A DNA stretch of 64,000 nt from Pseudomonadota bacterium (GCA_043744215.1 JAYTVC010000049.1:1051-65050); one strand, 5' to 3'; numbered from the stretch's first letter, positions 12,092 through 32,874 are shown. Notes: generated from the letters alone by a model not told the origin. Numbers and translations: made by a program.

Positions 12092-12127
12092 CTATTTCCT
12101 CGTGCTTCCGACTTTTGATTTGGAGAA

Positions 12128-15637: not shown

Positions 15638-16651
15638 ATGTCGGGTTTTGATGACTATTGGTATGTAATCGCGGAATCGGAACAGCTAAAGACGGGCAGC
15701 GTACTTGCGCGATGCGTGCTGGATGAAAATCTGGTGTGCTTTCGTTCGGCGAATGGACAGCCAACGGTTTTGCAGGATCGCTGTCTGCACCGTCATGCGC
15801 CCCTGTCGGGCGGCAGTGTACACAATGGTTTGTTGTCCTGTCCCTATCACGGCTGGACTTATGACGGCGGCGGTTGTGTTGTCTCCGTGCCATCCATGGG
15901 GTGCAGTTCAAATGGAAAAATTTCCCAGCCGTTTCCAGTGATCGAACGCGATGGCTATGTCTATGTGCGTTTGAAGCGAGAGGGGGCGGCGGAGATACAG
16001 CCATTCAACATGCCACACTACCAGCAGCCAGGATGGCACAACCTGCGATTGCAAAACCGTTTTGCCAACAACGTATCGAATTGCGTTGAAAATTTTATTG
16101 ATATTCCCCATACGGCATTTGTGCATCGGGCCATCTTCCGCGCCAGTCGCGGCGAGCGCCTGTCGGCGACGGTTACCCGCATCAACGGTGAAGTGCATGT
16201 CAGCTATCGCAACGAGCAAGCTAATCTCGGCAGCTATCGCTGGTTTCTCAATCCGCGCGGGCAGGGCATCCAACATACCGATAGTTTTTATGCGCCCAAT
16301 GTGACGTCGGTGGTGTATGAAATCGGCACCAAGCGATTCATTATTACGTCGCAATCCGTGCCGGTTGCAGCGGATGAAACCCTGGTCTATACCGATTTGA
16401 CCTATGCGTTCGGTAAACTCAATACTTTGGCGGCGCCATTTGTGCGGCGTCATGCCCAGCGTATTATCGATCAGGATATCGAAATACTGGCGGCGCAAAT
16501 GAAGGTGATTAAAAAATACGGTTGTGATTTTTCCGATACGCCAGCCGATGTTATTCACCGTTGTGTCGATTCCATCCGCGAGGCCATCGCGCGCGGTGAC
16601 GATCCACGCAGCCTGGCGCCATTAACGCGGGACATCGAGTTCACCGTATGA
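15638..16651 (+). CDS. Rieske [2Fe-2S] non-haem-iron oxygenase (alpha-subunit type)
   Basis: The Rieske motif is CLHRHAPLSGG...CPYHGWTYD (CxH...CxxH). The catalytic domain contains NFIDIPHTAFVH. Confidence 0.85.
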   Translation: MSGFDDYWYVIAESEQLKTGSVLARCVLDENLVCFRSANGQPTVLQDRCLHRHAPLSGGSVHNGLLSCPYHGWTYDGGGCVVSVPSMGCSSNGKISQPFPVIERDGYVYVRLKREGAAEIQPFNMPHYQQPGWHNLRLQNRFANNVSNCVENFIDIPHTAFVHRAIFRASRGERLSATVTRINGEVHVSYRNEQANLGSYRWFLNPRGQGIQHTDSFYAPNVTSVVYEIGTKRFIITSQSVPVAADETLVYTDLTYAFGKLNTLAAPFVRRHAQRIIDQDIEILAAQMKVIKKYGCDFSDTPADVIHRCVDSIREAIARGDDPRSLAPLTRDIEFTV

Positions 16652-17268
16652 CTTTGCGCGGGCGATTGATCAGTTTATTTCCTGCAGCCTGGCTGGCTGC
16701 GGTGGCGACATGTTTGATTCGGATTGTGATTGCGCCAGATGGCGTAAAATTTTTTCTGTTGTTCGTGGCGCTGTATTTGCTGCCGGTACTTTGCTTTAGA
16801 TTGCACAATCTGGCATGGCCGCTCACCGAGGGCCGCTCGCGTTTGGATGTGCCGACCTATTCACCCTGGTGGGGCAGCCATCAGTTGCAAATCATGTACA
16901 GCGCATTCCCGTTCCTTGAGGCGGCGCTGAGACTAATCCCCGGCGCATACAGCGCATGGCTGCGCTTGTGGGGCAGCCATATCGGGCGCAGGGTTTATTG
17001 GACACCAAGAGTTGAAATCGTTGACCGTAGTTTGCTCGAGGTAGGCGACGACGTCGTGTTCGGCCATCTGGTGGCTTGTAGCGCCCACATTATTCAACGC
17101 CGCGAAAATTCTACCGCTCTCTATGTGCGGCGGATTCGGATCGGCAATCGCGTGCTGTTGGGAGCAGGTTCCCGCATCGGCCCCGGTGTGCGCATCGAAG
17201 AGGGCGTTACGCTGGATTTGCGTTCCGACGTCATGCCCGGCCAACGTATTCGGGCCAACAAAACATGA
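16648..17268 (+). CDS. Membrane-anchored left-handed-beta-helix (hexapeptide) acyltransferase-like protein
   Basis: The N-terminal segments are hydrophobic. The C-terminus has hexapeptide-like repeats (VGDDVVFGH, IGNRVLLGAGSRIGPGVRIEEGV). There are ATGA overlaps at both ends. Confidence 0.5.
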   Translation: MTLRGRLISLFPAAWLAAVATCLIRIVIAPDGVKFFLLFVALYLLPVLCFRLHNLAWPLTEGRSRLDVPTYSPWWGSHQLQIMYSAFPFLEAALRLIPGAYSAWLRLWGSHIGRRVYWTPRVEIVDRSLLEVGDDVVFGHLVACSAHIIQRRENSTALYVRRIRIGNRVLLGAGSRIGPGVRIEEGVTLDLRSDVMPGQRIRANKT

Positions 17269-18779
17269 CGATTGCGGGTGCGCTGGCAGCGCCACTGCTG
17301 CGTATCTACTGCACGCCTCGCGCCAGGGCTTTTACTCGCGCACTCGATGATGTCACGAGTGCACAGCGATGCACACTAGCCCGTATCATTAAAGCCAGTG
17401 CTGCCACCGACTACGGACGCTCTTTACATTTGCGACGCGACGCGGGCATTGCAGAGTTTCGCGACCGGGTACCCTTGGTAGATTATTCCGTTCTCGAACC
17501 TTGGATACAAAAACAGCGCGCTGAACGACGACCGATAATTACACCTGGCCGCATCCGTTGCTACGAGCCCACATCCGGCAGTTCGAGTGCGGCCAAATGG
17601 ATTCCCTACAATGATGCCTTGCTCGGTTCCTTTCGCAGTATGTTTGCAATTTGGGCTGGCGATTTACTCGCGCATACATTGCACCCGCGTTCCGGCCGAA
17701 CTTTTATCAGCGTCTCTTCGACGGCTAACGGAAAAAGTGAAGGCTTCGATGATGACCGCGAATATCTTGGTGGCCTGTTGCGCAATTTGGTAGGGCGCTT
17801 TTTGGTGTTGCCACCCAAGGCGATGACGACGCAAAGCCCCGAACAGTTTCGTGACGGGTTGGTGCTGGCGTTGATGAACAGCGCCGATCTGGAAATTCTT
17901 TCCATTTGGAATCCGAGTTATCTGCTGGTTCTGCTCGAACATTTTCAGCGCCACCGCGAACGTTTGTTGCCCGCTTTCGCGCCGGCAAGAAGAGCGGTGT
18001 TGACGCGCACCAATGTGCAGTGGCATGAGGTATGGCCAGAGTTGCAATTGATTTCATGCTGGGCAGATGCGGCGGCGGCCAGCCCGGCGCTACAACTCAA
18101 AAGCCTGTTTCCGCAGGCCGTCATTCAAGGCAAAGGCCTGCTCGCGACGGAAGCGCCGGTCACTATTCCGCTTATTGGTAGCGGAGGTTGCGTGCCCTTA
18201 GTGGATGAAATATTTATCGAATTAGAAGACCGGTCGGGACGTTTGCATTTGCTACAGGAAGCAATTACCGGCACCGAATATGCCGTCGTTATCACGCAAG
18301 CGGGCGGATTTTTGCGTTATCGTTTGGGAGATCGGGTGAAAGTGACAGGTTGGCATCGCAATGCGCCTTTACTGCAATTTATCGGGCGCGCCGATGCCGT
18401 ATCCGATCTGGTTGGCGAAAAACTGGGAGAGGAATTTGTGGCGCAGGCGTTACGCGATCTGGCGCCCGCTGCATTTTGTACCCTGTTGCCTGTGCAAGCG
18501 AAGATGGGGGCATCCTATTACTGTTTGCTCACGGACGACCCGCGGCCGTCACTGCATCATTCTTTGGAAGCGGCCTTGATGAAAAGCTATCGCTATCGAG
18601 AGGCGCGTTGGCTAGGCCAACTGGAAGCCGTGCGAATAATTTCGCAACCGCAGATGCGCAGCGCTTTACACGATGCCTTGATTGTAAGCGGGATGAAGGC
18701 AGGAGACATCAAGGATAGGGCATTGATGACTTCCCTGACGCAAGCGCAAAAAATTTATACGCAGTGCGTGGAGAATTAA
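17265..18779 (+). CDS. GH3-family protein (putative ATP-dependent acyl-acid amido synthetase)
   Basis: YEPTSGSSSAAKWIPYN resembles the GH3/ANL adenylation P-loop-like motif. The size (504 aa) and overall layout fit bacterial proteins annotated as the GH3 auxin-responsive promoter family. Confidence 0.65.
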   Translation: MTIAGALAAPLLRIYCTPRARAFTRALDDVTSAQRCTLARIIKASAATDYGRSLHLRRDAGIAEFRDRVPLVDYSVLEPWIQKQRAERRPIITPGRIRCYEPTSGSSSAAKWIPYNDALLGSFRSMFAIWAGDLLAHTLHPRSGRTFISVSSTANGKSEGFDDDREYLGGLLRNLVGRFLVLPPKAMTTQSPEQFRDGLVLALMNSADLEILSIWNPSYLLVLLEHFQRHRERLLPAFAPARRAVLTRTNVQWHEVWPELQLISCWADAAAASPALQLKSLFPQAVIQGKGLLATEAPVTIPLIGSGGCVPLVDEIFIELEDRSGRLHLLQEAITGTEYAVVITQAGGFLRYRLGDRVKVTGWHRNAPLLQFIGRADAVSDLVGEKLGEEFVAQALRDLAPAAFCTLLPVQAKMGASYYCLLTDDPRPSLHHSLEAALMKSYRYREARWLGQLEAVRIISQPQMRSALHDALIVSGMKAGDIKDRALMTSLTQAQKIYTQCVEN

Positions 18780-19672
18780 CGCATGCTTGTGTAAAGTTGC
18801 GCGCATTCGTTCGCGTTGCAAGGTGTGAACAAACCTTTTTCCTGCAAGTTATCGATCAGCCATTCCATGCCGGGCTGGGTCATCAGTTGTCGCAGCCGGT
18901 CGAGCTTGGCTTGAGTTTGTGATTCACTTTCCAAAGCAATAAACAAACCGGCAATATCCGCCTGATTGCTTGCGCCGATAGCGCGATCGAGCGAGGCGAT
19001 GACCGATTGCGGGCCGCAGCGGACCATTTGTAAAAAAGCCTGGCTGCCGTCGACGAGAAAGCGTTTGTCCGTTTCGCTTAAACGATCCGCGCGAAATGCG
19101 GCCAGCCCTGCGGCATGATGCAACGCTTCGTCCTGCGCCATGCGCTTGAATGCGGAAGCCAGCGCCTTGTCGCGGCATTCTTTTGCTAATCCGCCGTAAT
19201 GGACAATGCCAAATCCTTCCAGCACTACTTGCAGCAGAAATGCGAGAGGCTGCGGGTTGCCATGCGCAACCAGGTCGGCAATGAACCGACTGAATGGGTC
19301 GGCCCCGCGAGCGTGCGCATCAATCCATGGTTCCAGCCATGCCGAGTGGGTGGCTTCGTCTGCGCCGATGAGGGCAAATACCCGTTGCTCATCGAGGCTT
19401 TCGGCCAGCAGGGTCATCTTGGCGCAAAAAACAATGCCGCTGCGCTCAATGCACCAGGATTCCGACAGCAAGCCTTCAGCGGCACCGGCCAGCGTGGCAG
19501 TTTGTTTTGCCCCATCGGCATCGCGAAAACGCGCTACCTGATTAAGCTTAAAAAAATCTGCGTCCCACAAAACGCTGTGCATTTCATGATTGCCGTCGGG
19601 ACGACGACTACGCAGCAGACGCTCTGCCATGCGGCGCAGCGCGTCTTCACGTTCATCGATGGCGCGGTTCAT
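18776..19672 (-). CDS. Ferritin-like diiron-carboxylate protein (putative oxygenase)
   Basis: It has two ExxH motifs (DEATH, DEALH) in helical context, plus further Glu ligand candidates. There is a 4-nt overlap with the upstream SDR gene. Confidence 0.6.
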   Translation of the reverse strand: MNRAIDEREDALRRMAERLLRSRRPDGNHEMHSVLWDADFFKLNQVARFRDADGAKQTATLAGAAEGLLSESWCIERSGIVFCAKMTLLAESLDEQRVFALIGADEATHSAWLEPWIDAHARGADPFSRFIADLVAHGNPQPLAFLLQVVLEGFGIVHYGGLAKECRDKALASAFKRMAQDEALHHAAGLAAFRADRLSETDKRFLVDGSQAFLQMVRCGPQSVIASLDRAIGASNQADIAGLFIALESESQTQAKLDRLRQLMTQPGMEWLIDNLQEKGLFTPCNANECAQLYTSMR

Positions 19673-20496
19673 GGGTGATTGGCTTTGGTCATCAGGCGGC
19701 GAAAGGTGGCGCCGATCATATTTTGGGCGAGGCTCTCGGGCAGCCAGCGCCTGAGCCGATGCATCATGCGCGAATCTGAACCCACACGGGTGCGCAGCGG
19801 CATGGTTTTTCTCTCGGCCAGTTTCACAATAGCAGCGACTACAAGCGCCGGATCGCGTCCGGGCCGCGCTAGCATGCGTGCCTGCATGGCGCGATATTGG
19901 GCGAGTTGTTTTGTTTCCATGCTGTCAGTAGGCAGCGCGCGTGAGCCCCAAAGGATATTACCGGCAAAGCGGGTGCGAAATCCGCCGGGTTCCACCAGCG
20001 CCACTTGGATGCCATGGGGTGCCAGTTCATGCCGCAATGCTTCGGATAATCCTTCGATAGCATGTTTGGATGCGCAGTAAAACGAATTCATGGGTATGCC
20101 GGTTTCGCCTGCGAGTGAAGACAGATTGATGATGCGCCCTTTGGCTTGCCGCAAGGCCGGTAATAATTCCTGCGCCAGCAGAGCCGGGCCCAACACATTG
20201 ACTTGCATCTGCTGACGCATTTGCCCAGCGGTATAGCTGGCAAACGGGCCGTTCAGTGCATAGCCAGCGTTGTTGATCAGGCAATCAAGATGCTTGAAGT
20301 TGGCAGCGGTGGCAGTGACTTGATGTTCATTTTCCAGATCAAGCGGAATAACCGTGATGTCAGCCAATTCTGGCGGTGCGTTAACGGGATCGCGCAATGC
20401 CGCGAAGACTTTCCACCCGCGCGCATGAAACGCCAACGCTAGGCCCAGCCCGAAACCGGAAGAGCAGCCGGTGATCAGCACGCTGCGCTCAGACAA
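19669..20496 (-). CDS. Short-chain dehydrogenase/reductase (classical SDR)
   Basis: It has TGCSSGFG (TGxxxGxG), NNAG and YCASK (YxxxK). Confidence 0.85.
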   Translation of the reverse strand: MSERSVLITGCSSGFGLGLALAFHARGWKVFAALRDPVNAPPELADITVIPLDLENEHQVTATAANFKHLDCLINNAGYALNGPFASYTAGQMRQQMQVNVLGPALLAQELLPALRQAKGRIINLSSLAGETGIPMNSFYCASKHAIEGLSEALRHELAPHGIQVALVEPGGFRTRFAGNILWGSRALPTDSMETKQLAQYRAMQARMLARPGRDPALVVAAIVKLAERKTMPLRTRVGSDSRMMHRLRRWLPESLAQNMIGATFRRLMTKANHP

Positions 20497-21550
20497 GTTT
20501 TCCTCCTGGCTCGCTGCGGGCGATATGTAATTTTATCGGCTGTGATTGTGCTGGATCATCGTTCCATTGAGCGAGGGGCTGGTCTTCAAGATGGCGGATA
20601 AAGGCCAAAATTGTCCGGTCTGCAGCGATAGGGTTACGCAAATTGAAGCGGATGGTTTGAAAGACGCGCGTATCGCCGTAGGCGAAGTAACGGGCCGCGA
20701 TGGCGGTGCCATAAAGCAGCGCCTTGTTAATCAGCCAGCCAAACAACCCTTTGCGCTGTTTGGTAAACGCGATGGTCTGGCCTTCAGTTTGGCCGTCATC
20801 GCCGCGCCGCAGGGCGAACATCAAATGCAGATGCAGAAAATCCGGACCGAAGGTTACGAAGCCCAAACTGCCATACCAATAGCTCATGGAATAGGTGAGC
20901 GGACCTTTATAAAACCGCGCAATCAGCCGCCACAACCTATTGCTATCGGGTACGTGCCCGGTATTGTGAAATTGAATATTGGCAGTGCTACGTACCGTCG
21001 GTTCCAGATTGAGGATAGAGCCGGGCAAATGATGCACGCTACGGAAATGTTGTTCGTCGATGGCATTGATCAGCACGACGTTTGGATGACAGCGTTTTTC
21101 AAATCGATTGGCCAACAAGCTGGCACAAGCCTGGCCCGCCAGCTCCGGCACTTCGGGAATATCGTGGGCAGGTTGTTCGCCAGTCCATAGCCATACCATG
21201 CCGTAACGTTCGGCGGTCGGCCAGCGTCGTGTACGCAGACGTGCCGCCGGTTCAGTGTCAAGACAGGGGATATCGCTGCAACGTCCGTCGGCCTCGAAAC
21301 GCCAATGATGAAAAAAACAGCGCAGCGCATTGCCTTCGACACGGCCTTCCGCAAGATGTGCGCCCATGTGAATGCAATGGGCATCGAGTGCCACCACGCG
21401 TTGATCGTCGCCGCGATAAACTGCGAGGTCTTTGCCGAGTAATTTTAGTGCCCGTACTGTGCCGCGCGGTATGTGCGAAGAGGGACAAAGCCAGTACCAG
21501 CCTTCAACTGTAACTATTTGATTATTAACAGTATTTTTTCGTTCTGTCAT
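20489..21550 (-). CDS. Rieske [2Fe-2S] non-haem-iron oxygenase
   Basis: The Rieske motif is CIHMGAHL...CFFHHWRF. I take the start at ATG 21550 (MTERKN), which forms an ATGA overlap with the upstream gene. The ORF track extends to 21634. Confidence 0.85.
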   Translation of the reverse strand: MTERKNTVNNQIVTVEGWYWLCPSSHIPRGTVRALKLLGKDLAVYRGDDQRVVALDAHCIHMGAHLAEGRVEGNALRCFFHHWRFEADGRCSDIPCLDTEPAARLRTRRWPTAERYGMVWLWTGEQPAHDIPEVPELAGQACASLLANRFEKRCHPNVVLINAIDEQHFRSVHHLPGSILNLEPTVRSTANIQFHNTGHVPDSNRLWRLIARFYKGPLTYSMSYWYGSLGFVTFGPDFLHLHLMFALRRGDDGQTEGQTIAFTKQRKGLFGWLINKALLYGTAIAARYFAYGDTRVFQTIRFNLRNPIAADRTILAFIRHLEDQPLAQWNDDPAQSQPIKLHIARSEPGGKLV

Positions 21551-22293
21551 AGTGTGGGTGACGCCAATACGCCACTTAAAAAAGCCCGACGTGCGATGGG
21601 TTGCAAGTTGTCGGCGGAGAGTTCGCACAAGCATACCAATTCGTCACCGTGGACATAACCGGGGTTGCGCGCCAGAAAAAATTCGACAGCAGGCAAGCGA
21701 AGATGCGCGTCGGGAATCTGCGCAAAAGTGTCGCGCAGATGGCCTTGCGATTGCGGAAAGCGCAGCACGCCAGCCGCAGTGTCGTAGGCTGCACCGAAAC
21801 GATCACGCGCGAGAAATTCCATCAGTTCTGCCATGGGTTGTGGTGTTATCTGATCGGGCGCAGGAAAATATTCGCGGCTGAATGCAGACAAGTAACGGTA
21901 AGTGCGATGGCCTTTGGAAATCAATAGCCAGTAAAGCGCTTGATCGGGATGTTCCGCTTTGAGGTCGCCGGCGAGGCGCAACCAGGCAAATGCCAAAGCC
22001 TGTTGCCCCCAATGATTTTCATCCACGACGGTGTCGCCAGAAAACAGCACCCGTACGCGTCGACCCGCAAACGTGCGCGCATACACGGCAAGAGTAGAAA
22101 AACCCTGCAACCCGCCCGCCTCATCGCGTAACAGCAGGACAAAATCTTTCTCAGCCAGATCCGCCGCAAAACGGGCGAACTGTGTGTCGGCATAGTAATG
22201 CTCAAACAATGCAAACATTTCGCGCTGGGCCGACTCGTCGAGCGAGTTGACGCGCTGTATTTGTGGTGTGTTTAGTTTACTTCGGGTATTCAT
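21547..22293 (-). CDS. Hypothetical protein, possibly GNAT-fold acyltransferase-like
   Basis: The protein is 248 aa. The central beta-strand/helix pattern (FVLLLRDEAGGLQGFSTLAVY...VLFSGDTVVDENHWGQQAL) is reminiscent of GNAT-like N-acyltransferases, but I see no firm motif. It is translationally coupled on both sides. Confidence 0.35.
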   Translation of the reverse strand: MNTRSKLNTPQIQRVNSLDESAQREMFALFEHYYADTQFARFAADLAEKDFVLLLRDEAGGLQGFSTLAVYARTFAGRRVRVLFSGDTVVDENHWGQQALAFAWLRLAGDLKAEHPDQALYWLLISKGHRTYRYLSAFSREYFPAPDQITPQPMAELMEFLARDRFGAAYDTAAGVLRFPQSQGHLRDTFAQIPDAHLRLPAVEFFLARNPGYVHGDELVCLCELSADNLQPIARRAFLSGVLASPTL

Positions 22294-22882
22294 GACGAAT
22301 AAATTTCCGGGTAACTATCCAGGCTAAAGGGGCAAGGGCCATTCCACCTGCTATATCCCAAACGATATGTTGCTTGGTGGTCAAGGTTGAAACAACAATC
22401 AGGCCGGGCCATAGCACCGCCAATAAACGGTCTTTACGATACCATAATGCCATAGCTGCAATTATTGCCAATGCAACGTGCAGCGAAGGAAAACAATTGC
22501 GCGGAATATCGGCGAGATAGAGCATCGACCAGGCGAGACCGGTTAACCCTGCCGGCGATGGAACAGGTCGATCGAGTTGGGTCGGCCACAAAATGAAAAT
22601 GCCCGCAGCGAAGACCGTGGCAAGCAGCATCGAATAAAAAGTCTGGCTGCGATTTCTATCGTTGCGCGCGCGCAAAATGGCAGTGGGCAGCAACAGAAAT
22701 TGACTGAGGTAAATCCACACCGACCCATCGAGCAGGGGAATGCCTCGCTCGAAAGCGCTCATTTGTAGCTGGTGCGTTTCACCCACTGCTATAGCTGCGC
22801 TGCCCAGATAGATTGCGCCAAAAGCCAGGTAGCCAAGCAACAAAGCGCGTCCCTGGTTTGACGGGTTGATAAGCGGAAGCAT
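22277..22882 (-). CDS. PAP2-superfamily integral membrane protein
   Basis: The protein is polytopic. PSLHVA and HIVWD match the C2 (SxH) and C3 (HxxxD) motifs of PAP2 / PAP2_C-type lipid phosphotransferases. Confidence 0.6.
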   Translation of the reverse strand: MLPLINPSNQGRALLLGYLAFGAIYLGSAAIAVGETHQLQMSAFERGIPLLDGSVWIYLSQFLLLPTAILRARNDRNRSQTFYSMLLATVFAAGIFILWPTQLDRPVPSPAGLTGLAWSMLYLADIPRNCFPSLHVALAIIAAMALWYRKDRLLAVLWPGLIVVSTLTTKQHIVWDIAGGMALAPLAWIVTRKFIRHEYPK

Positions 22883-22884
22883 AA

Positions 22885-25002
22885 TTATGCCGAGGTTGCT
22901 TGAAACTCGTTAAAGCGCGCGCGGACACGTTCGACCTCCGGCCAATATTTTCTGCGCAGCACCGAAAAAAACATCTGGTTCAGGCTACGTGAAGCGCGCC
23001 ACGAAAAAAGCAGGTCTCGTATATCCACATGGGAACGCTCGTACAACAAATGACCCAACAGCCCCGTGATCTGTGACAAAGGAATGAGCAAAAATAACCA
23101 CAGGTTGAAAGTGAGGGCGAAACCAATCCATGCCGTGTACATCATGCAAACGGCCATGCAATGGATCAGCACATTGCCGGGCTGCTGATGTTTGAATACA
23201 AACACATCCCAATAATTGGTGAACGGATGATCCAGCATAACATCGTCAATGCGATTGCGGTAGCGCGCGAGCACTGCCGACCGACCGCGAGCTTTTACCA
23301 TCGGTGCGAGCAGTGTGCCGCAAGGCTGCGTCCCCAATACGGGCAACGGCGATCCGTTCTGCACCACTTCCCGGCCGCCGATAAAAACACTGCGGACAAT
23401 TTCCTCCGATCCGCGTTTGACCATACGTCTGGCACCATCGAGAACCGGGTCTTCGATTTCTACAGGAGCAGGGTTCGGCTGCCGCAATGAATCCGGTTGC
23501 AGCAGGATGAGATCGGCACGTTTGCCTGCGCGTAATTCACCGCAGTCAAGATTAAACCAGCGTGCAGCCTCCCCCGTTACCCGCGCGATAGCCCGTTGCG
23601 GCGACATAAAGCCTGTTGTGACAGCCTGCCGCAGCAGTGTCAGCGCGCCGTCGAAAAAAGCAATATTGCGCGCGTGCGCCCCGGCATCGGTGAAGCCCGG
23701 CAAAATGTGGGGATGCTGCATCAAACGCTGGCGGACTGACGCACGTTCGTTGGCGCTGCCGGCCACCCAGCGAAGTTGGTTGTCATGGGTTTCCAATAAT
23801 TCCATCAGCATGGCGGTGGGATGACGGTTATTTTTATGCGCCACCTCCGCCACCGTTTGGCCAATATGCGCAAAGTCCGGCGAAGCAACGATTCGCATAC
23901 GTTGCGTATCGCGATGAAACGTCCGTAGTTCCCGCCGCTCCCAATCTTGCTTGAAACGATCCTTAAAGCCGGGCGCGGCCCAGAGCAAACGTCGGCCATG
24001 GCTGTCAATGCAACTATTCAATTCCGCCCCGGCAGAAAATTCTTCAAACAGGGGTGTCAGCGGCCCGTCGGCATAAATGGTGAACGGCTCGGTCAAGGTT
24101 TGAAAACGCAGATTGCAACCGAGCAAACGATTCATCACAAAAGTGACCATCGGAAATATTCGCCATAGCCAGGGCAAATCGGTCATGTCGAGGGCTGAGA
24201 GCACCGTGAGTCGCAGTGGCGGCCGGAAAATACCGATAGCCATCGAGCCAATAAGCAGAAATGAAAAAATATTCTGCGGGTTCGGGGTGGTTTGGAAAAC
24301 GGCATCATGATCGCGGCATACATCTGCCAGCATGCGGTATTCTCGCGCATCGGCGTAGTGGGATGGTACTGAACGCCCAGCGAAGACGCCGCTCACTTTG
24401 TGCCAGTGGACCATATCTACCGATATGCCAATGCAGCCGGCTTCCAGCGCCGCCACAGCGAGTTCGCGCATGCGCGCCAGATCGTTGTCGTTGGCGCGGT
24501 CATGTAGACTGCGTTGTAGCCCCATCACCGCTGCACGTAAAGCGCTATGGCCCACCAGCGGCGCAACGTTTGGCCCAAGCGATAAGCTGCGCAGGTGATC
24601 CAGATATTGTTGCGGCGAATCCCAGGAAACCGATTGCGACAGCCATTTGCGCACTAACACGCCCGGCAGGTTCTCCACGCGCAAAAAAATATCGGCCAGG
24701 TCAGCCGGCTTGCCCGCAGTGAGTGACAAGCTGCAATTGCCCATGACGATGGAAGTTACGCCGTGCCGCACCGATTCCGCCAGACCCGGCGATATTTCAA
24801 CTTCAACATCATAGTGAGTGTGAATATCGACAAAGCCCGGCGCAACCCATAGGCCGCTGACATCGCGAACTTCCCGCGCGGGCTGGTTGATGCAAGGGGC
24901 GAGTTCTGCGATACGGCCCGCTGCAATGCCGACGTCCTGTTGGATAGGCGGCGCGCCGGTTCCGTCGAAGACCAGCCCGCCTTTGAGCAGCAGATCAAGC
25001 AC
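22885..25002 (-). CDS. Amidohydrolase (N-acyl-D-amino-acid deacylase-like) fused to C-terminal Mpo1-like/DUF962 membrane domain
   Basis: The N-terminus (LLKGGLVFDGTG...GRIAEL...VAPGFVDIHTHYD) is typical of the metallo-amidohydrolase D-aminoacylase family. The last 130 aa or so (HQQPGNVLIHCMAV..., LLGHLLYERS) match the HxxxxNxxxH and GHxxxE patterns of DUF962/Mpo1-like proteins and contain TM helices. Confidence 0.7.
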   Translation of the reverse strand: MLDLLLKGGLVFDGTGAPPIQQDVGIAAGRIAELAPCINQPAREVRDVSGLWVAPGFVDIHTHYDVEVEISPGLAESVRHGVTSIVMGNCSLSLTAGKPADLADIFLRVENLPGVLVRKWLSQSVSWDSPQQYLDHLRSLSLGPNVAPLVGHSALRAAVMGLQRSLHDRANDNDLARMRELAVAALEAGCIGISVDMVHWHKVSGVFAGRSVPSHYADAREYRMLADVCRDHDAVFQTTPNPQNIFSFLLIGSMAIGIFRPPLRLTVLSALDMTDLPWLWRIFPMVTFVMNRLLGCNLRFQTLTEPFTIYADGPLTPLFEEFSAGAELNSCIDSHGRRLLWAAPGFKDRFKQDWERRELRTFHRDTQRMRIVASPDFAHIGQTVAEVAHKNNRHPTAMLMELLETHDNQLRWVAGSANERASVRQRLMQHPHILPGFTDAGAHARNIAFFDGALTLLRQAVTTGFMSPQRAIARVTGEAARWFNLDCGELRAGKRADLILLQPDSLRQPNPAPVEIEDPVLDGARRMVKRGSEEIVRSVFIGGREVVQNGSPLPVLGTQPCGTLLAPMVKARGRSAVLARYRNRIDDVMLDHPFTNYWDVFVFKHQQPGNVLIHCMAVCMMYTAWIGFALTFNLWLFLLIPLSQITGLLGHLLYERSHVDIRDLLFSWRASRSLNQMFFSVLRRKYWPEVERVRARFNEFQATSA

Positions 25003-25042
25003 AGTGTAGTTGTGATGAGACTTGCCGGTTTTTCAAAATAGC

Positions 25043-25657
25043 TTAGGCAACGGGTCGGCGGCGGAGCAGGGTCATAGATGCAAGCCCGATAAGCAGGCCA
25101 AGAATACCACTGCCAGCGGCGATTTTGCCCGCGTATGATTTGGCTGCTGCCAAGGCCGGGTTATCCATCAGATTGGCGGAAAAATGGATGTTGACGAGTT
25201 TCCAGGTGCCGTTGTCTTTTTGCGCGACGGCACTCCACCTTGTGGGCATGGTGCGCACCTCGCCGTCCTTAAAATGGAAAGTATCCTGGGAAGTGCCATA
25301 AGTAATGCCTGTGTTGTCACCGACAAATTGCGTCAGCTCATCGGCTACCGGCTTGGTTTCTATTTTATTGACCAGTGCACCCGGCCCTTCGAATAAGCCG
25401 AGATAATACTTTTTGAACGCGTCGGCTCCCACGAGTTTTTGATTATCTACCGTGACGACGGTGAAATTCGGATGCAAGCTGGGCATAATGCTGTCGAAGT
25501 TGCGCGTATTCAGGGCTTCAGCACCTTTGACCAACAACGCCCGCAGCGCGGCATGATCGTCCGTCCGGTCGGCCGTTTGTCCAGATGCACTGAGAGAAAA
25601 AATCAGCGAAAAAAACAGGGTAACGAAGGCAAAAAAAAGTTTTGGGCTATTCTTCAT
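25043..25657 (-). CDS. Exported SnoaL/DUF4440-like (NTF2-fold) protein with C-terminal TM anchor
   Basis: It has a signal peptide, an NTF2-like core (LNTRNFDSIMPSLHPNFTVV...WKLVNIHFS) and a C-terminal hydrophobic helix followed by RRRP. Confidence 0.6.
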   Translation of the reverse strand: MKNSPKLFFAFVTLFFSLIFSLSASGQTADRTDDHAALRALLVKGAEALNTRNFDSIMPSLHPNFTVVTVDNQKLVGADAFKKYYLGLFEGPGALVNKIETKPVADELTQFVGDNTGITYGTSQDTFHFKDGEVRTMPTRWSAVAQKDNGTWKLVNIHFSANLMDNPALAAAKSYAGKIAAGSGILGLLIGLASMTLLRRRPVA

Positions 25658-25711
25658 AATGTTGACCTCAAATAACGCTACGTGGATGAATATAGTACGC
25701 TATCAAAATAA

Positions 25712-25737
25712 TATGCCACATCGCATACTATGCCACA
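25712..25737. promoter_or_regulatory. Direct repeat TATGCCACA x2 (17-bp period) in a divergent promoter region
   Basis: tatgccaca-tcgcatac-tatgccaca lies in the 118-bp gap between divergently transcribed operons. Confidence 0.3.
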
Positions 25738-25775
25738 AGATATCGGCACAGGGCTGATGAACAAAGGAATTTCCC

Positions 25776-26507
25776 ATGACCATAGTCTGGTTGCTGCCGC
25801 TGGTGACATTTGCCGCCCTCGCGGTGCTTGAGCGCAGATTGCCATCTGCCCATGCCACATCGCCTTCAGCCCGCGCGGACTACCTTCTCAATCTCGCCGG
25901 GCTTACCGTGCAGGGCATAGGTGTACCGCTCGCAGGTTATTTTATTGCTACGGGTTTGTTGGCCGTTTACTGGCCAAACGCGGCGGGTGTTTTACACATC
26001 GGATGGCTGGGTGCCTTCGCGTTGAATTTTATAATGATTGATTTTCTTTATTACTGGCAGCACCGGCTGTTTCACCGGCTACCAGCGCTGTGGGCGTTGC
26101 ATGAGTGCCATCATGCTTCGCCGTTTGTAAATGTGTGGGCCACGTCGCGCAATTCTCTGGCGGTGAATTTTATTTTTGTGTACATGCTGTTTAATCCGCT
26201 GTTCGGCTTTTTGTGCGACCGTCCCGATGGTTTTTTTGCAGCGGCCGCCCTTACGGCAAGCCTCGACATTTGGCGCCATTCGCGTTTACCGGAGCAATGG
26301 ACATCAAATTGGCTGACGCGCATCCTGGTGACGCCCGCACGCCACCACGACCACCATAGCCCGGACGGCCAGGCGACAAATTTCGGTGCAAATTTTATTT
26401 TATGGGATAAATTATTCGGCACCGCCCGTGAATGCAGCGGCTATCCCAAGGCTTACGGAGCAGGCACCGCCCGCAGCCCGTGGCGACAATTTCTTTTCCC
26501 ATGGTAA
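25776..26507 (+). CDS. Fatty-acid hydroxylase / sterol desaturase superfamily membrane diiron enzyme
   Basis: It has three His boxes, HRLFH, HECHH and HHDHH, in a polytopic membrane protein. Confidence 0.8.
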   Translation: MTIVWLLPLVTFAALAVLERRLPSAHATSPSARADYLLNLAGLTVQGIGVPLAGYFIATGLLAVYWPNAAGVLHIGWLGAFALNFIMIDFLYYWQHRLFHRLPALWALHECHHASPFVNVWATSRNSLAVNFIFVYMLFNPLFGFLCDRPDGFFAAAALTASLDIWRHSRLPEQWTSNWLTRILVTPARHHDHHSPDGQATNFGANFILWDKLFGTARECSGYPKAYGAGTARSPWRQFLFPW

Positions 26508-26516
26508 GCTGACAAC

Positions 26517-27701
26517 ATGCACCCAGGCCTCGCACAAAACCAGACCAAATCCTTGTTGGATGACACGCCAACGGTCAAAAAACTTGAGCTCAATTTGCGC
26601 CGCAATGTTGAGCAAGACCACACTGCCCTCATAGACGACGCTGCGGCGCGTTTCCGTTACGAGGATTGCCGCAACGAATATTGGAACCCCGAATCCTACT
26701 CGTTATTGTGGGGAACGCCCGTGTGGGACCAGGCCACCGAGGCGCAGCGCGTCGTGCTCAACCAGCTTTACTGGGTGGCCTATTACGCGCAAATTATCTC
26801 GGCCGAGATTTCTACTATTTTTCTCAACCAGGTTGCGGCGGCTGGCTTGTATTGCCTCGAAGATTTTCGCCTGGTGTGCGATAACCTCGACATCGAAACC
26901 AAGCAGGAACGCGCCCATATTAACGCCTTTAAAAAAGTCAGCGAAGAGGTAGAGCACAAGCTGTTCGGCGAGCGGCTGTTCACTTATCCTATGCGCAGCC
27001 TGTATGACCACACCATGATTTTTGCCGACACCAATGCGGCAAAAACTTTCTGGCGGCGTATGCAGCTCCAGGCGTTTACGGCGCTCTCCACCAGCAATGC
27101 GTTTCTCGGCAGCCAGTATTTGCTGATACGCGGCTTACGTACCTTGAATGGCAAATTGGTGCAGCACCAGCTCTCAAATTATTATATGCAGCACCCGGAC
27201 AAACCCAATGCCCCATTACCTTCGGCCATCAGTTATTGGCACTTCATGGACGAGTCGTTCCATTTCAATACCTCGCGCCTGGTCGGGTTGGAAGTACCGC
27301 GTTCCATCGAAGCGCCCACGGCTTTCGAGCGCTGGGTCGTCAACCGTGGCGTGGCCGGTTGCCAAAAGGATCACTATCATTTTTCCGTCGTCATCAACGG
27401 CATTTTTTGGCACGAGCCGGCGACCTTCCCGGTAATTTACAAATTGTTCCGCTCGCCCACTTTCGGTATGGATCATGCCCAGGCTTTGGCGATGATGAAA
27501 CAATGCTTTACCCAGGAATCCGATGGGCTCACTGCCACCGCCACAACCCATCAGACGGCGTCGGAGTCCTATCGTGCCTTTGTCGAGCCCGTCACCTGGC
27601 TCAACCAGGAAAACCGCGACATGCGCCTGATGCGCGCCAATTCCATTCAGCACTATCTTGGGCGCAATCGGCAAGCCCTAAAACATTTTCAGCCCGCATG
27701 A
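26517..27701 (+). CDS. Soluble diiron oxygenase (AurF-like ferritin fold)
   Basis: It has ExxH motifs (ERAH, ESFH) with additional Glu residues in helical context. The size and layout are like AurF-family diiron oxygenases. Confidence 0.6.
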   Translation: MHPGLAQNQTKSLLDDTPTVKKLELNLRRNVEQDHTALIDDAAARFRYEDCRNEYWNPESYSLLWGTPVWDQATEAQRVVLNQLYWVAYYAQIISAEISTIFLNQVAAAGLYCLEDFRLVCDNLDIETKQERAHINAFKKVSEEVEHKLFGERLFTYPMRSLYDHTMIFADTNAAKTFWRRMQLQAFTALSTSNAFLGSQYLLIRGLRTLNGKLVQHQLSNYYMQHPDKPNAPLPSAISYWHFMDESFHFNTSRLVGLEVPRSIEAPTAFERWVVNRGVAGCQKDHYHFSVVINGIFWHEPATFPVIYKLFRSPTFGMDHAQALAMMKQCFTQESDGLTATATTHQTASESYRAFVEPVTWLNQENRDMRLMRANSIQHYLGRNRQALKHFQPA

Positions 27702-28000
27702 AAAATCATCGCATTGAGTTTCCCGGCACATCATTTGCTCCGGTTGAATTGCCCGATCTGACCAGCCTGCCTTTGCACCTCACCGTGCAGAATTCACCGG
27801 TTCTGTTCGGGTGTCGCAGTGGCCTATGCGGAACCTGCCTCGTTGAAGTGGAGCCTTTGACTGACGATTCACTCGAACCATCTGATAACGCCGAAGCCGA
27901 AGCGCTGGAACTTTACGCGCGGGGCAACTCCAAAGCGCGTCTCGCTTGCCAACTGCTGCTGACGGCAGACATTCGTATCCGTAAAATCAAGAGCGGCTAA
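27698..28000 (+). CDS. Plant-type [2Fe-2S] ferredoxin
   Basis: The 100-aa protein has CRSGLCGTC (Cx4Cx2C) plus a distal Cys (LACQ). There is an ATGA overlap with the diiron oxygenase. The ORF-track entry 27236-28000 is real only from 27698. Confidence 0.8.
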   Translation: MKNHRIEFPGTSFAPVELPDLTSLPLHLTVQNSPVLFGCRSGLCGTCLVEVEPLTDDSLEPSDNAEAEALELYARGNSKARLACQLLLTADIRIRKIKSG

Positions 28001-28688: not shown

Positions 28689-29501
28689 CTAGTCGCGGAA
28701 CTTCGCCTCGCGCTTTTGCATATTCGCTGCCGCCGCTTCCTGCAAATCATCCGACAACAGCATGGCGGCGTTCCAGGTGGCGATGTAATTCAATCCGTCG
28801 GCGACGGTATGATCGCGCGAGTAAATGAGCATCTCTTTGGTGCCGCGCGTGGCGAGGGGAGATTTCTGCGCGATGGTTGTTGCGATTGCGGTTACGCCGG
28901 CCATCAGTGCTTCCTGGCTATCAAAAGTTTTGTTCACAAAACCAAACGACCGTGCTTCGTCGCCGGAAAATTTGCGCCCCGTGTAAGCCAATTCGCGCGC
29001 GATGCCGTCGGGAATCAGTTTGGGCAGGCGCTGCAATGTGCCGACATCCGCCGTCATGCCGATGTCGATTTCTCTGATGCTGAAAAACGCGTCAGCCGTC
29101 GCGTAGCGCATGTCGCAGCACGTCGTCATATCGATGCCGAATCCGACGCATGCACCGTGAATAGCCGCGAGTACCGGCTTGCGGCAGCGTTCGATGTTCG
29201 TCATGCAATCCTGCATATCAAGTATTTGCCGGCGCAGTTTTTCGCGCATACGCGCCTGATCTTTTTCTGCGACAAGTTGTTGCACGCCCGCGAATGAAGC
29301 GAGGTCAATGCCGGACGTGAAATGCTTGCCGCGTCCACTGAGAATCGCGACGCGGGCTTCGGGGGTTTCATCGACCCATTTGAACGCCGTGCGGATTTCA
29401 TTCCACATGGTTTCATTCAGTGCATTGGCTTTGTCGGGGCGGTTAAGCTCGATGTGGGCGATGTGGTTTTGCAGGGAGACGGCGAGAGTTTGGTAATCCA
29501 T
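28689..29501 (-). CDS. Enoyl-CoA hydratase/isomerase (dienoyl-CoA isomerase-like crotonase)
   Basis: It has the crotonase fold (NRPDKANALN, FTSGIDL, AAIHGACVGFGIDM). I take the start at ATG 29501, which has an aaggaa RBS. Confidence 0.8.
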   Translation of the reverse strand: MDYQTLAVSLQNHIAHIELNRPDKANALNETMWNEIRTAFKWVDETPEARVAILSGRGKHFTSGIDLASFAGVQQLVAEKDQARMREKLRRQILDMQDCMTNIERCRKPVLAAIHGACVGFGIDMTTCCDMRYATADAFFSIREIDIGMTADVGTLQRLPKLIPDGIARELAYTGRKFSGDEARSFGFVNKTFDSQEALMAGVTAIATTIAQKSPLATRGTKEMLIYSRDHTVADGLNYIATWNAAMLLSDDLQEAAAANMQKREAKFRD

Positions 29502-29526
29502 GTGAATGATTTCCTTTTCGATTTCA

Positions 29527-29636
29527 CCCATCCCCAGTTTAACCTTTCCCTTGAAGGGGAAGGGACTCCTCTACAGTTAAGGGAGTTATGGTTTTAGTCC
29601 CCTCCCCTTCAAGGGGAGGGCTAGGGTGGGGATGGG
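29527..29636. repeat. Composite palindromic REP-like element (family B)
   Basis: cccatcccc...cccttgaaggggaaggg ... cccctccccttcaaggggagggctagggtggggatggg. Nested hairpins are present. A related copy lies at 52746-52786. Confidence 0.75.
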
Positions 29637-29661
29637 TTTAAGCTTGAACAAACAACAAAAA

Positions 29662-30492
29662 TTATTTCTTCGCCATCGCCGCCATCATCTGTTCTGCGCC
29701 CATATTGAACAGCGCGGAGCCGGGAAGATTTTGCCCGCCGTCCGTCACCAGCAATGTGCCGGTGATATACGACGCCAGCGGCGAGGCGAGAAACACGGCG
29801 GCGTTGCCGATGTCGTCCACTGTGCCCATGCGTTTCAACGGAATGGAGTTCAATAGTTGTTCGGTGAATTTGGGATTGGTCAGGCGTTTGACGCCCTCGG
29901 TGCCTTCGATGGGGCCAGGCGCGATGGAGTTACAGCGGATGCCGTACTTGCCCCATTCCAGCGCGAGGTTGCGCATCATGTTGTCGATGCCCGCTTTCGC
30001 CGCGCCGACGTGCAATTGATACGCGTAAGGCATAAATGCTTGGCCGGCAGATATATAAAGTATGCAGCCCTTGGTTTGTTTCAATTGCTCGAACGCCGCG
30101 CGCGAGGCGTTGAATGCGCCGAGCAAATCAATGTCGATCACGGTTTTGAATCCGTTGGCGCTGAGTTGTTCCGACGGGCAAATGAAATTGCCGGCCGCGC
30201 CGGCCACCAAAACATTCATCGGGCCGAGTTCTTGCGCACTTTTTGCGAACGCCGCTTCGAGGGCCGTATAGTCGCGCACGTCGGCAACGACAGGGCAAAC
30301 TTTTGCGCCGAGTGCTCTGAGCTCAATCGCGGCGTTGTCGAGTTTCTCCTGCGTGCGTCCGCAGATGGCGATATTCGCGCCGAGGGCGGCGAAATTTTTT
30401 GCGATGCCTAAATTAATTCCGCTGCCACCACCGGTGACAAAAACGGTTTTGCCTTTGAACAAATCTTTTGCGAGATAAGAAGTAATGTTCAT
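29662..30492 (-). CDS. SDR, 2,4-dienoyl-CoA reductase-like
   Basis: TGGGSGINLG is followed by AGNF and then YxxxK-type catalytic residues (AAKAG). The overall similarity is to peroxisomal-type dienoyl-CoA reductases. Confidence 0.7.
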   Translation of the reverse strand: MNITSYLAKDLFKGKTVFVTGGGSGINLGIAKNFAALGANIAICGRTQEKLDNAAIELRALGAKVCPVVADVRDYTALEAAFAKSAQELGPMNVLVAGAAGNFICPSEQLSANGFKTVIDIDLLGAFNASRAAFEQLKQTKGCILYISAGQAFMPYAYQLHVGAAKAGIDNMMRNLALEWGKYGIRCNSIAPGPIEGTEGVKRLTNPKFTEQLLNSIPLKRMGTVDDIGNAAVFLASPLASYITGTLLVTDGGQNLPGSALFNMGAEQMMAAMAKK

Positions 30493-30514
30493 TTTTTATG
30501 CCTTTATGAATGAC

Positions 30515-30541
30515 AAATAATTGAATGTAATCAATATGTTA
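30515..30541 (-). repeat. 27-bp AT-rich intergenic motif copy
   Basis: The reverse strand reads taacatattgattacattcaattattt. It lies in the 54-bp gap between two co-directional genes. Confidence 0.55.
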
Positions 30542-30546
30542 CGTAA

Positions 30547-31266
30547 TCACGCTTTCAGCCTGCCGTCCACCAGTTTGGGTATCACATTGAACACACCAAG
30601 ACGCGCGGCAAAATCCACTTCATCCTGCATACCATTTTTTTTCATCAGCTTGCCGATGCGCGAGCGCAAGAGTGCATCCACTGGATTGGAATGTAAAAAC
30701 AAATCCTGCGCTGCCAACGCGGCATCGGAGAATTCATAACGCGATGGTTCGGCCTTGTGTAACAAATCAATCATGTATCCCGCGCCGTAAAAATCTTCCA
30801 GATTGAATCCGCCGCCGGAACCGGAACAGACAATTAACACGGTTTCGTCCTGATGTTTATCCATCACGTGTTGCATCACCGCGGCACCGTTAAGCAGGGC
30901 GGCGGCATAAACATGATCGGAAGACGACGACTTCGCCAATGCAACCGTGCCATTGGTGGTCGAGTAAATCAGTTTCTTGTCGGCGAGATCAGACTTCAAT
31001 AGTGCCAGCGGCGTCGGTGGGCCGAAGCCGTCGATATGTTTAATATTTTTTTCGCCGGCCAGCAGGTAAGTCCCCGGCGCATGCTTTTCCGCTTCGCTGC
31101 GCGCATGGTGCTCATCCAGCGCGGGAATGACTTCCGTTACGCCGTGATGAAACGCCGTGACAATGGTCGACGTGGCGAACAGGATGTCGAGCACGACAAC
31201 GACTTTGCCGGTGAGCAATTCTGAATCGAGGTCTTCTTTCTTTAGCAGGACATGGACTTTAGGCAT
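30547..31266 (-). CDS. 2-phosphosulfolactate phosphatase (ComB) family protein
   Basis: The N-terminus VVVVLDILFATSTIVTAFHHGVTEVIPA and the overall length are typical of the ComB family. Confidence 0.6.
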   Translation of the reverse strand: MPKVHVLLKKEDLDSELLTGKVVVVLDILFATSTIVTAFHHGVTEVIPALDEHHARSEAEKHAPGTYLLAGEKNIKHIDGFGPPTPLALLKSDLADKKLIYSTTNGTVALAKSSSSDHVYAAALLNGAAVMQHVMDKHQDETVLIVCSGSGGGFNLEDFYGAGYMIDLLHKAEPSRYEFSDAALAAQDLFLHSNPVDALLRSRIGKLMKKNGMQDEVDFAARLGVFNVIPKLVDGRLKA

Positions 31267-31733
31267 TAGCTTGTCGCGCCCGGATTGCGTACACGGAACA
31301 TGCCCATGCCTTCCATGGTCATCACCAGTTCGTTGTGCTGGTTATAAACGTGCCACAAACTTTTGATGATGCCGATGTCGGGTTTGCTTTGCGAGGTGCG
31401 GGCTTCCATCGTGGTGCGTGTGGCGCGGATGGTGTCGCCGGCGCGCACAGGTTTAAGCCATCGAATGTTATCGACGCCAGGTGAGCCGAGGCTCGCCGAT
31501 TCACCCAGATAACCATCAACCATCATGCGCATGACCAACCCGCAGGTTTGCCAACCGCTGGCAATGATGCCGCCGAAAAAAGATTCTTTCGCGGCGGCTT
31601 CATTGATGTGAAACGGCTGCGGGTCGTATTCGGTGGCGAAGGCGATTATTTCTTCCTTGGCGACAAGGCGCGAGCCGAGGTTGTGGACTTCGCCGATTTT
31701 ATTCAGTTCTTCCCAGTAATATTTATAAGCCAT
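31266..31733 (-). CDS. MaoC-like (R)-specific enoyl-CoA hydratase / hot-dog dehydratase
   Basis: It has a hot-dog fold with a MaoC-type segment (DPQPFHINEAAAKESFFGGIIASGWQT). There is a one-base start/stop overlap with neighbouring genes. Confidence 0.75.
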   Translation of the reverse strand: MAYKYYWEELNKIGEVHNLGSRLVAKEEIIAFATEYDPQPFHINEAAAKESFFGGIIASGWQTCGLVMRMMVDGYLGESASLGSPGVDNIRWLKPVRAGDTIRATRTTMEARTSQSKPDIGIIKSLWHVYNQHNELVMTMEGMGMFRVRNPGATS

Positions 31734-32866: not shown

Positions 32867-32874
32867 GTCTGTTC

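Follow-up and report, generated by a model that had tools for sequence, protein, structure and literature searches.

A predicted bifunctional fusion of an amidohydrolase with a remodelled metal site and an Mpo1-like membrane module in a widely conserved orphan gene cluster

The window analysed here, a stretch of 64,000 nucleotides of DNA from a Pseudomonadota bacterium (GCA_043744215.1, JAYTVC010000049.1:1051-65050), carries on its minus strand a gene in which an amidohydrolase module is followed by a membrane module of the Mpo1-like (DUF962) type. The gene was a single uninterrupted open reading frame (ORF) of 705 amino acids (aa) with a GTG start and no internal stop codon, and its homologues shared this start point, opening with M-[LFY]-D-L. 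Pfam searches of the protein gave Amidohydro_3 (E 6.5e-15), Amidohydro_1 (E 2.1e-10) and PF06127 (E 1.6e-4). An AlphaFold2 (AF2) model of the full length reached a predicted local distance difference test score (pLDDT) of 88 and a predicted template-modelling score of 0.89, with the linker between the modules at a pLDDT of about 88-90. The initial annotation had proposed one polypeptide rather than two misjoined genes, and this was borne out: an independent Logan assembly (SRR23617271) encoded the identical protein beside the same neighbour genes, and the linker aligned without a change of frame in 32 diverse full-length fusion proteins, 53-74% identical to the query. The fusion is a genuine single gene, not an assembly error. 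Translation also placed the motifs quoted in that annotation where they were expected, with DIHTHYD at aa 59-65, YWDVFVFKHQQPGNVLIH at aa 597-614 and GLLGHLLYE at aa 647-655. The gene product is probably an enzyme of two modules that is anchored in the inner membrane and faces the cytoplasm.

The survey of related loci took one genome per species and yielded 589 relatives, and 68 of the fetched loci held both modules. The modules were fused in a single uninterrupted ORF in 34 of these, from at least 8 phyla and unrelated projects, including Accumulibacter, other Beta- and Gammaproteobacteria, Chitinimonas isolates, Tahibacter, alphaproteobacterial metagenome-assembled genomes (MAGs), Blastocatellia, Planctomycetota, Elusimicrobia, Obscuribacterales, Myxococcota, Berkiella and a few cyanobacteria. 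At 15 loci the modules were adjacent separate genes, with a 4-nucleotide (nt) ATGA overlap in Microseira (L058) and a 47-nt gap in Calothrix sp. PCC 7716, and at the remaining 19, all Nostocales, they lay on the same strand 0.9-5 kb apart. As independent genes, the amidohydrolases of cyanobacteria were 567-579 aa long and the Mpo1-like proteins 136-139 aa. In the split forms a conserved helix, RNRI...DHPF, was part of the Mpo1-like gene, placing the fusion junction within the variable linker at aa 568-577. The recurrence of fused and adjacent genes strongly indicates that the two activities work in concert. The fusion and its split forms offer a concrete hypothesis for the partner enzyme and substrate class of a bacterial Mpo1-like branch.

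The proposal that this is a new domain architecture did not hold, as the fusion is already recorded in databases. Among the matches listed, more than 100 homologues carried the combination of PF06127, PF07969 and PF01979 in precomputed annotation, besides the 34 loci from many phyla, and NCBI names some members, in Accumulibacter and Tahibacter, "Mpo1-like protein". Our literature search found no paper mentioning the fusion and no experimental work on it.

Some loci had features of their own. In Nostoc sp. NMS2 (L035), AAA_21/DUF4276 and DUF4365 genes (8024-9914 and 11791-12744) flanked and split the amidohydrolase and Mpo1-like pair, with DUF4365 between the two, and insertions may have separated the gene pair in Nostocales. 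In a Blastocatellia locus (L002, 1611-4006), an N6_N4 methylase and a RE_CfrBI restriction enzyme lay between the DUF4440 gene and the fusion gene. Odd taxon labels, which may be binning or labelling errors, were attached to an "uncultured Enterobacteriaceae" MAG (L011, CAZKHE010000022.1), whose protein was 72% identical to that of the window, and to a "Streptomyces griseus" MAG and a "Clostridia" MAG (L067, L068).

The C-terminal region is a complete, genuine Mpo1-like/DUF962 domain, in agreement with the assignment first made from its motifs. The query itself scored 22.2 bits against PF06127, just under the 24-bit gathering cut-off, and all 32 full-length homologues matched the family (E <= 0.01; best 5.9e-11), as did a stand-alone Nostoc orthologue at 35.3 bits. 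A search of 1.84 billion cluster representatives with a profile built from the last 131 residues returned 203 matches, fusion fragments first and then stand-alone proteins of 110-160 aa. PF06127 was matched by every member of a set of 20 of these stand-alone proteins (best E 7.4e-39; the first at 83 bits against the cut-off of 24), and hhalign aligned the C-terminal region with the set at a probability of 99.8% (E 4.8e-29, 110 columns). The precomputed Pfam annotation of the 705-aa protein listed amidohydrolase domains only, because its score falls below the cut-off, while most homologues have PF06127; the threshold thus hides a real C-terminal domain, and automated annotation says amidohydrolase only.

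One Trp and three His were invariant in the stand-alone set, with Asn and Gly near-invariant, and W598, H605, N610, H614, G650 and H651 of the query aligned with W13, H20, N25, H29, G65 and H66 of the stand-alone proteins; E655 was invariant across the fusion family. The module thus shares with Mpo1/DUF962 proteins homology over the whole bacterial domain, a two-helix hydrophobic hairpin, and the invariant Trp, three His, Asn and Gly-His...Glu, and differs from them in belonging to a divergent subfamily and in being covalently joined to a 567-aa hydrolase. Modelled alone, it was all-helical, with two long hydrophobic helices. Hydropathy identified aa 611-653 as the sole strongly hydrophobic stretch of the fusion protein, and the tail at 655-705 contained 10 Lys or Arg residues. 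The hairpin of the AF2 model would serve as the membrane anchor, with His605, His614, His651, Asn610 and Glu655 predicted to lie at the cytoplasmic membrane interface beside the hydrolase module. A search of the PDB by sequence and fold found no solved structure resembling the module. Yeast Mpo1 is cited as an Fe(II)-dependent 2-hydroxy fatty acid dioxygenase of sphingoid-base degradation (PMC10398889). Our literature search found Mpo1-like/DUF962 function demonstrated in yeast only, and no measured activity of a bacterial member.

The same module subfamily also occurred in other fusions, with a short-chain dehydrogenase/reductase (SDR; module N-terminal, 405 aa), with asparagine-synthase/GATase proteins (module C-terminal, about 800 aa) and with a transporter of the SBF bile-acid/sodium symporter family (413 aa), and it seems to be a reusable membrane add-on.

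The N-terminal module was recognised as an amidohydrolase by Pfam and by Foldseek (E ~1e-27), as had been proposed. Its model consisted of a (beta-alpha)8 barrel with a flanking beta-sandwich, superimposable on D-aminoacylase, and its best matches in the PDB were 9g5m, 1m7j, 3gip and 9kb1 (E 6.6e-28 to 1.6e-25; target-normalised template-modelling score 0.72-0.79). The first three of these are N-acyl-D-amino-acid deacylases, and 9kb1 is PpOngB, a carbohydrate de-N-acetylase. By sequence, only aa 2-195 and approximately 462-510 could be aligned to these solved enzymes. The fusion family shares with this subset the fold, the positions of the HxH, Cys and Asp ligands and a GHSxLR motif, and its N-terminal 195 residues align at E 1e-35. 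It departs from the subset in an identity of only 18-22%, in a mid-barrel (aa 200-460) that is unalignable by sequence, in a larger beta6-beta8 insertion, in Thr and Ala in place of His220 and His250 in every member, in signature motifs of its own, and in the membrane module with which it is fused or paired.

In D-aminoacylase, His220, His250 and Cys96 form the beta metal site, which is catalytically essential. The comparison set for this enzyme consisted mostly of fragments carrying THMRDE (His220) and ISHHK (His250), which sufficed for these two positions and were too partial for a whole-domain profile, and the hhalign comparison with them (probability 100%) ended one residue before His220. 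The equivalent of His220, on strand 5, was Thr239 in a conserved TPNP, a position at which no family member had His. The equivalent of His250, on strand 6, was Ala270 in VLSALD; this exact pairing is predicted from strand position and spacing, while the absence of His was observed directly, as the aa 202-362 region contained no conserved His, H363 excepted. The remaining ligands were kept (Table 1), and D439, within FTDAGAH, was also kept in unfused actinobacterial homologues. With the beta-site histidines absent, N-acyl-D-amino-acid deacylase activity should not be assumed. The term D-aminoacylase-type in the initial annotation thus describes the fold correctly and fails in the enzymatic sense, and the label "N-acyl-D-amino-acid deacylase" given to the fusion protein by JGI is likewise valid at the level of the fold only.

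The family carried the private motifs HTHYDxExE, FEEF, FHRD ([FW]HR when unfused relatives are included) and GF[ST]DAGAHxRN. Unfused actinobacterial relatives, at 38-40% identity, had the same Thr/Ala substitutions and the same private motifs, which indicates a distinct amidohydrolase subfamily. A subfamily without beta-site histidines bears on how metal sites are rearranged in the superfamily. No signal peptide or N-terminal hydrophobic segment was found in the fusion protein by hydropathy, and the hydrolase module is therefore probably cytoplasmic. Unfused homologues in Nocardia, Rhodococcus, a Pseudomonadota MAG and a Leptospiraceae MAG (38-44% identity, about 570-583 aa) also had the private motifs and had lost the beta-site histidines; no cluster genes were present within 10 kb of them.

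Table 1. Positions of the fusion gene, its modules and motifs, and the neighbouring genes, counted from the first nucleotide of the window
Feature	Position	Strand	Basis
Whole gene, amidohydrolase/Mpo1-like fusion	22885..25002	-	Single ORF, stop codon counted in; identical protein in independent assembly; homologues 53-74% identity
Amidohydrolase module, aa 1-567	23302..25002	-	Pfam Amidohydro_3/_1, AF2 model, Foldseek
DIHTHYD, aa 59-65; H61/H63 = alpha-site HxH (His67/His69 of D-aminoacylase, end of strand 1)	24808..24828	-	Invariant in 32 homologues; aligns with SHTH of 1m7j; translation
Cys90 in GNCS = Cys96 of D-aminoacylase (after strand 2)	24733..24735	-	Invariant; aligns with GNCG of 1m7j and 3gip
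DAGAH, aa 439-443; D439 likely = catalytic Asp366 (after strand 8)	23674..23688	-	Invariant; aligns with GSDG region of 3gip; translation
Variable linker = fusion junction, aa 568-577	23272..23301	-	Most variable and gapped region of alignment; separate cyanobacterial genes end/start here
Mpo1-like module (DUF962, PF06127), aa 578-705	22888..23271	-	Pfam E 1.6e-4; 32/32 homologues; hhalign 99.8%; AF2 of module alone pLDDT 90
Mpo1-like motif 1, YWDVFVFKHQQPGNVLIH, aa 597-614; invariant W598, H605, N610, H614	23161..23214	-	Alignment, hhalign, translation
Mpo1-like motif 2, GLLGHLLYE, aa 647-655; invariant G647, H651, E655	23038..23064	-	Alignment, hhalign, translation
Hydrophobic helical hairpin, helices aa 608-631 and 634-654, ~2-residue loop	23041..23181	-	AF2 model; hydropathy
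SnoaL/DUF4440 (NTF2-like), first gene of minus-strand operon	25043..25657	-	Pfam; hydrophobic segments 4-26 (signal/anchor) and 179-198 (C-terminal transmembrane); syntenic in most loci
PAP2_3 membrane phosphatase/phosphotransferase-family gene, 2 nt downstream of fusion	22277..22882	-	Pfam E 9.9e-12
Conserved 248-aa protein, possibly GNAT-like	21547..22293	-	No Pfam/NCBIfam match; syntenic
Rieske non-haem oxygenase	20489..21634	-	Pfam Rieske E 1e-22; weak SdmA-like match; syntenic
SDR	19669..20496	-	adh_short E 6.5e-43
Ferritin-like, putative di-iron protein	18776..19672	-	Ferritin_2 E 2.8e-5
Convergent operon: Rieske/VanA_C oxygenase (15638-16651), hexapeptide-repeat acyltransferase (16648-17268), GH3-type amide synthetase (17265-18779)	15638..18779	+	Pfam
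Divergent operon: FA_hydroxylase/sterol-desaturase-family His-box enzyme (25776-26507), CylC-like di-metal carboxylate protein (26517-27701), 2Fe-2S ferredoxin (27698-28000)	25776..28000	+	Pfam

The fusion gene lies within a conserved 13-gene cluster of 12.4 kb (window 15638-28000), composed of the minus-strand operon that contains it, a divergent operon and a convergent operon. An association with the adjacent genes for the His-box hydroxylase and PAP2, which had also been proposed, was upheld: the FA_hydroxylase gene was syntenic in most non-cyanobacterial loci, and PAP2_3, which is translationally coupled downstream of the fusion gene, occupied the same position in Tahibacter, Blastocatellia, alphaproteobacterial, Accumulibacter, Chitinimonas and Planctomycetota loci, overlapping the fusion gene in Tahibacter, Blastocatellia and an alphaproteobacterial MAG. 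The fusion gene had the same companions in Tahibacter, in alphaproteobacterial MAGs and at many further loci. Across the 25 fused loci with full flanks, the FA_hydroxylase, CylC-like, Fer2, two Rieske, SDR, ferritin-like and GH3 genes were each syntenic in 13-20; the ferritin-like gene was so in 19 of these, and in 14 of 15 separated loci. The proteins of the divergent operon were 53-80% identical across loci, and CylC-like orthologues carried PF28091. The convergent trio of Rieske/VanA_C, acyltransferase and GH3 genes was also present in alphaproteobacterial, gammaproteobacterial, Chitinimonas, Elusimicrobia and cyanobacterial loci. In the cyanobacterial loci PAP2_3 was absent, and a membrane GT2 glycosyltransferase lay directly upstream of the amidohydrolase, an arrangement found in 27 cyanobacterial and Obscuribacterales loci (for example L050 8483-9793 and L035 6655-7935). 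The best NCBIfam models for this GT2 were PgaC/IcaA (E 1e-29), with weaker matches to HpnI/HpnB and Glyco_transf_21.

Several searches across the cluster were negative. The homologue search with the 248-aa protein returned 1827 homologues, all "hypothetical" except for one whose UniRef name begins "GNAT famil", and PDB searches with this protein, the ferritin-like protein and the CylC-like protein gave matches at chance level only. A promoter scan between the divergent operons found a single match at consensus level, and shuffled sequences did as well. No PP-binding or AMP-binding Pfam match occurred within window 15638-28000, and no transporter or catabolic regulator was conserved near the cluster.

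The Rieske gene in its longest ORF, from the ATG at 21634, overlapped the gene for the 248-aa protein by 88 nt, and an in-frame ATG at 21550 lay directly after the stop codon of that gene. The true start is probably this second ATG, giving a protein of about 353 aa against 340-348 aa in orthologues, and would constitute translational coupling. For all three Rieske types of the cluster (window 15638-16651 and 20489-21634; L035 14065-15069), the best NCBIfam model was SdmA, a sterol 4-beta-methyl monooxygenase, at 72-76 bits against a cut-off of 600. SdmA-like Rieske proteins together with adjacent SDR, sterol-desaturase-family and NTF2-like proteins loosely recall polycyclic-lipid tailoring.

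Known types of lipid locus were considered for the cluster and rejected. For a sphingolipid locus, the KDS-reductase model reached 160 bits on the SDR against a cut-off of 400, and a serine palmitoyltransferase-like gene was absent; for an ornithine-lipid locus the OlsH and OlsE models scored far under their cut-offs, as did the SdmA model for a sterol C4-demethylation locus. OlsH of Singulisphaera acidiphila is a bacterial GH3 that makes N-acyl ornithine from free fatty acids (PMC12493201). The cluster resembles the OlsH/OlsI system in having a GH3-type ATP-dependent amide synthetase with an OlsE-like His-box hydroxylase nearby. It differs from that system in that its GH3 scored 54.5 bits against the OlsH cut-off of 620 and its hydroxylase 52.9 bits against the OlsE cut-off of 475, neither being an orthologue, and in that an OlsI-type partner was not conserved.

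A closer counterpart was found among the clusters of CylC homologues described by Eusebio et al. (2021; BMC Genomics 22:633, PMC8406957). Passages of that paper describe seven categories of such clusters, the most abundant being an orphan "Rieske-containing" type whose product is not known, which has no carrier proteins, probably acts on fatty-acid-derived substrates and has non-cyanobacterial members. According to these passages, the type comprises one CylC homologue, two to four Rieske proteins, sterol-desaturase/FA-hydroxylase and ferritin-like proteins and acyltransferases. Within window 15638-28000 we found two Rieske proteins, FA_hydroxylase, CylC-like and Fer2 proteins, and no carrier protein or fatty acyl-AMP ligase, which agrees with the cluster type as defined there; Nostoc, Calothrix and Microseira loci found through the amidohydrolase were also of this type. 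The word "amidohydrolase" occurs 0 times in PMC8406957, and its passages on these clusters do not mention an Mpo1-like gene. Relative to the clusters presented in those passages, the proteobacterial version has the fused gene together with PAP2_3, GH3 and SDR genes. Our literature search found no later characterisation of the Rieske-containing clusters. Two conserved genes, for the amidohydrolase and the Mpo1-like protein, are thereby added to this orphan cluster, and they suggest a way for a fatty-acid-derived substrate without a tether to be retained and then set free. Judged from sequence comparison, the fusion would combine two activities in one protein whose hydrolase metal site is remodelled, and it belongs to an orphan cluster of wide conservation.

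For the function of the fused protein we tentatively favour, with somewhat less than even confidence, a reading in which a membrane N-acyl compound would be hydrolysed and oxidative C1 chemistry would then take place on the freed (hydroxy) fatty acid, with substrate, order of steps, metal and chemistry all being predictions. In the first step, the amidohydrolase would cleave the amide of a membrane-associated N-acyl compound, which would be made or tailored by the products of the neighbouring genes: GH3, acyltransferases, His-box hydroxylase, the Rieske, CylC-like and ferritin-like oxygenases, and PAP2_3 (GT2 in cyanobacteria). The freed (hydroxy) fatty acid would then pass directly to the Mpo1-like metal centre, which would carry out O2-dependent C1 chemistry, as yeast Mpo1 does on 2-hydroxy fatty acids. 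A route to such amides may run through the neighbouring GH3, given that N-acyl ornithine is formed from free fatty acids by a bacterial enzyme of this type (PMC12493201), and the His-box hydroxylase could provide the route to a hydroxylated chain.

Several observations weigh against this reading. Two of the six metal ligands of D-aminoacylase, both beta-site histidines, are gone throughout the family, so that the hydrolase may use another metal arrangement or act on another substrate class, and its closest solved relatives include the sugar de-N-acetylase PpOngB (9kb1), meaning that the enzyme could cleave off an acyl group other than a fatty acid. The Mpo1-like modules form a divergent subfamily, with the query under the Pfam cut-off and only 203 matches in 1.84 billion, and this subfamily is also fused to unrelated enzymes; its chemistry may not be the one known from yeast Mpo1. 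A minimal core of SnoaL, fusion gene and PAP2, with no oxygenase genes nearby, was seen in Blastocatellia, Planctomycetota and one gammaproteobacterial MAG (L002, L012 and L016). In the literature searched, neither the fused family nor its cluster had a characterised representative.

The alternative that survives best, although we consider it rather doubtful, is that the hydrolase acts in biosynthesis as a head-group deacylase, removing a small N-acyl group such as N-acetyl from a polar head group set by GT2 in cyanobacteria or by PAP2_3 elsewhere, while the Mpo1-like module modifies the lipid tail independently. GT2 and PAP2_3 may be alternative head-group enzymes. The PgaC/IcaA-like and, more weakly, HpnI-like GT2 directly upstream of the amidohydrolase in 27 loci would fit such a role, and PpOngB provides a solved sugar-acid de-N-acetylase of the D-aminoacylase fold. 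The GT2/deacetylase pairs PgaC/PgaB and HpnI/HpnK would offer a parallel, though one drawn by analogy. Outside the cyanobacteria, however, the clusters contain PAP2_3 and lack GT2, although the amidohydrolase is retained there at 54-57% identity, and the tight fusion to a module of fatty-acid-oxygenase type would be left unexplained.

It is unlikely that the Mpo1-like module is mainly an anchor or targeting device, or a metal or redox unit with chemistry unrelated to 2-hydroxy fatty acids, so that the protein would simply be a membrane-tethered amidohydrolase. The fusion of the module subfamily to SDR, asparagine-synthase-like and SBF transporter proteins would be compatible with such a role, as would the score of the query under the Pfam cut-off and the failure of the PDB search to find a family structure that defines an active site. 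Against it, three His, Asn and Glu were invariant across phyla, in fused and unfused forms alike, and matched invariant residues of stand-alone DUF962 proteins, a constraint far stronger than anchoring would require; the module is also maintained as a gene of its own.

Equally improbable, in our judgement, is a role in catabolic salvage, in which the core of SnoaL, fusion and PAP2 would degrade an amide lipid (ceramide-like, an aminolipid, or a lipid A-derived N-acyl sugar acid) by dephosphorylation, amide hydrolysis and alpha-oxidation. PAP2 enzymes are commonly lipid phosphatases, and the core without oxygenase genes in the three lineages named above would suit this role. Yeast Mpo1 works in sphingoid-base degradation (PMC10398889). 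However, the genes are widespread in photoautotrophic cyanobacteria, they usually cluster with genes for an ATP-dependent amide synthetase and acyltransferases, which speaks for an endogenous compound being synthesised or remodelled, and no transporter or catabolic regulator is conserved nearby. An assembly or annotation artefact joining two genes has a negligible chance of being the explanation. In its favour, the modules are truly separate genes in many cyanobacteria; the identical ORF in an independent assembly, the 34 fused loci and the in-frame linker of 32 homologues speak against it.

Returning to the reading of hydrolysis followed by C1 chemistry, we put forward as a speculative and rather improbable extension that the cluster as a whole might tailor fatty acids on an amide (amino-acid) handle instead of on a carrier protein or coenzyme A (CoA). 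GH3 would couple a fatty acid with an amine, the tethered chain would be modified by the His-box, Rieske, CylC-like and ferritin-like oxygenases, and the amidohydrolase/Mpo1-like enzyme would then free the chain and trim it oxidatively at C1. If this were true, cyanobacteria, Accumulibacter, Acidobacteria and other diderms would make a lipid or lipid-derived metabolite that has not been described, and the fusion would be the first CoA-independent enzyme of "amide release plus alpha-oxidation".

The regions flanking the cluster in the window were unrelated to it. Downstream (28689-35813) lay genes of beta-oxidation type, encoding an enoyl-CoA hydratase, an SDR, two acyl-CoA dehydrogenases and a CoA transferase, together with a 2-phosphosulpholactate phosphatase-family gene, and upstream (3920-12016) a Tad/Flp pilus locus encoding RcpC, a secretin, a T2SSE ATPase and TadE.

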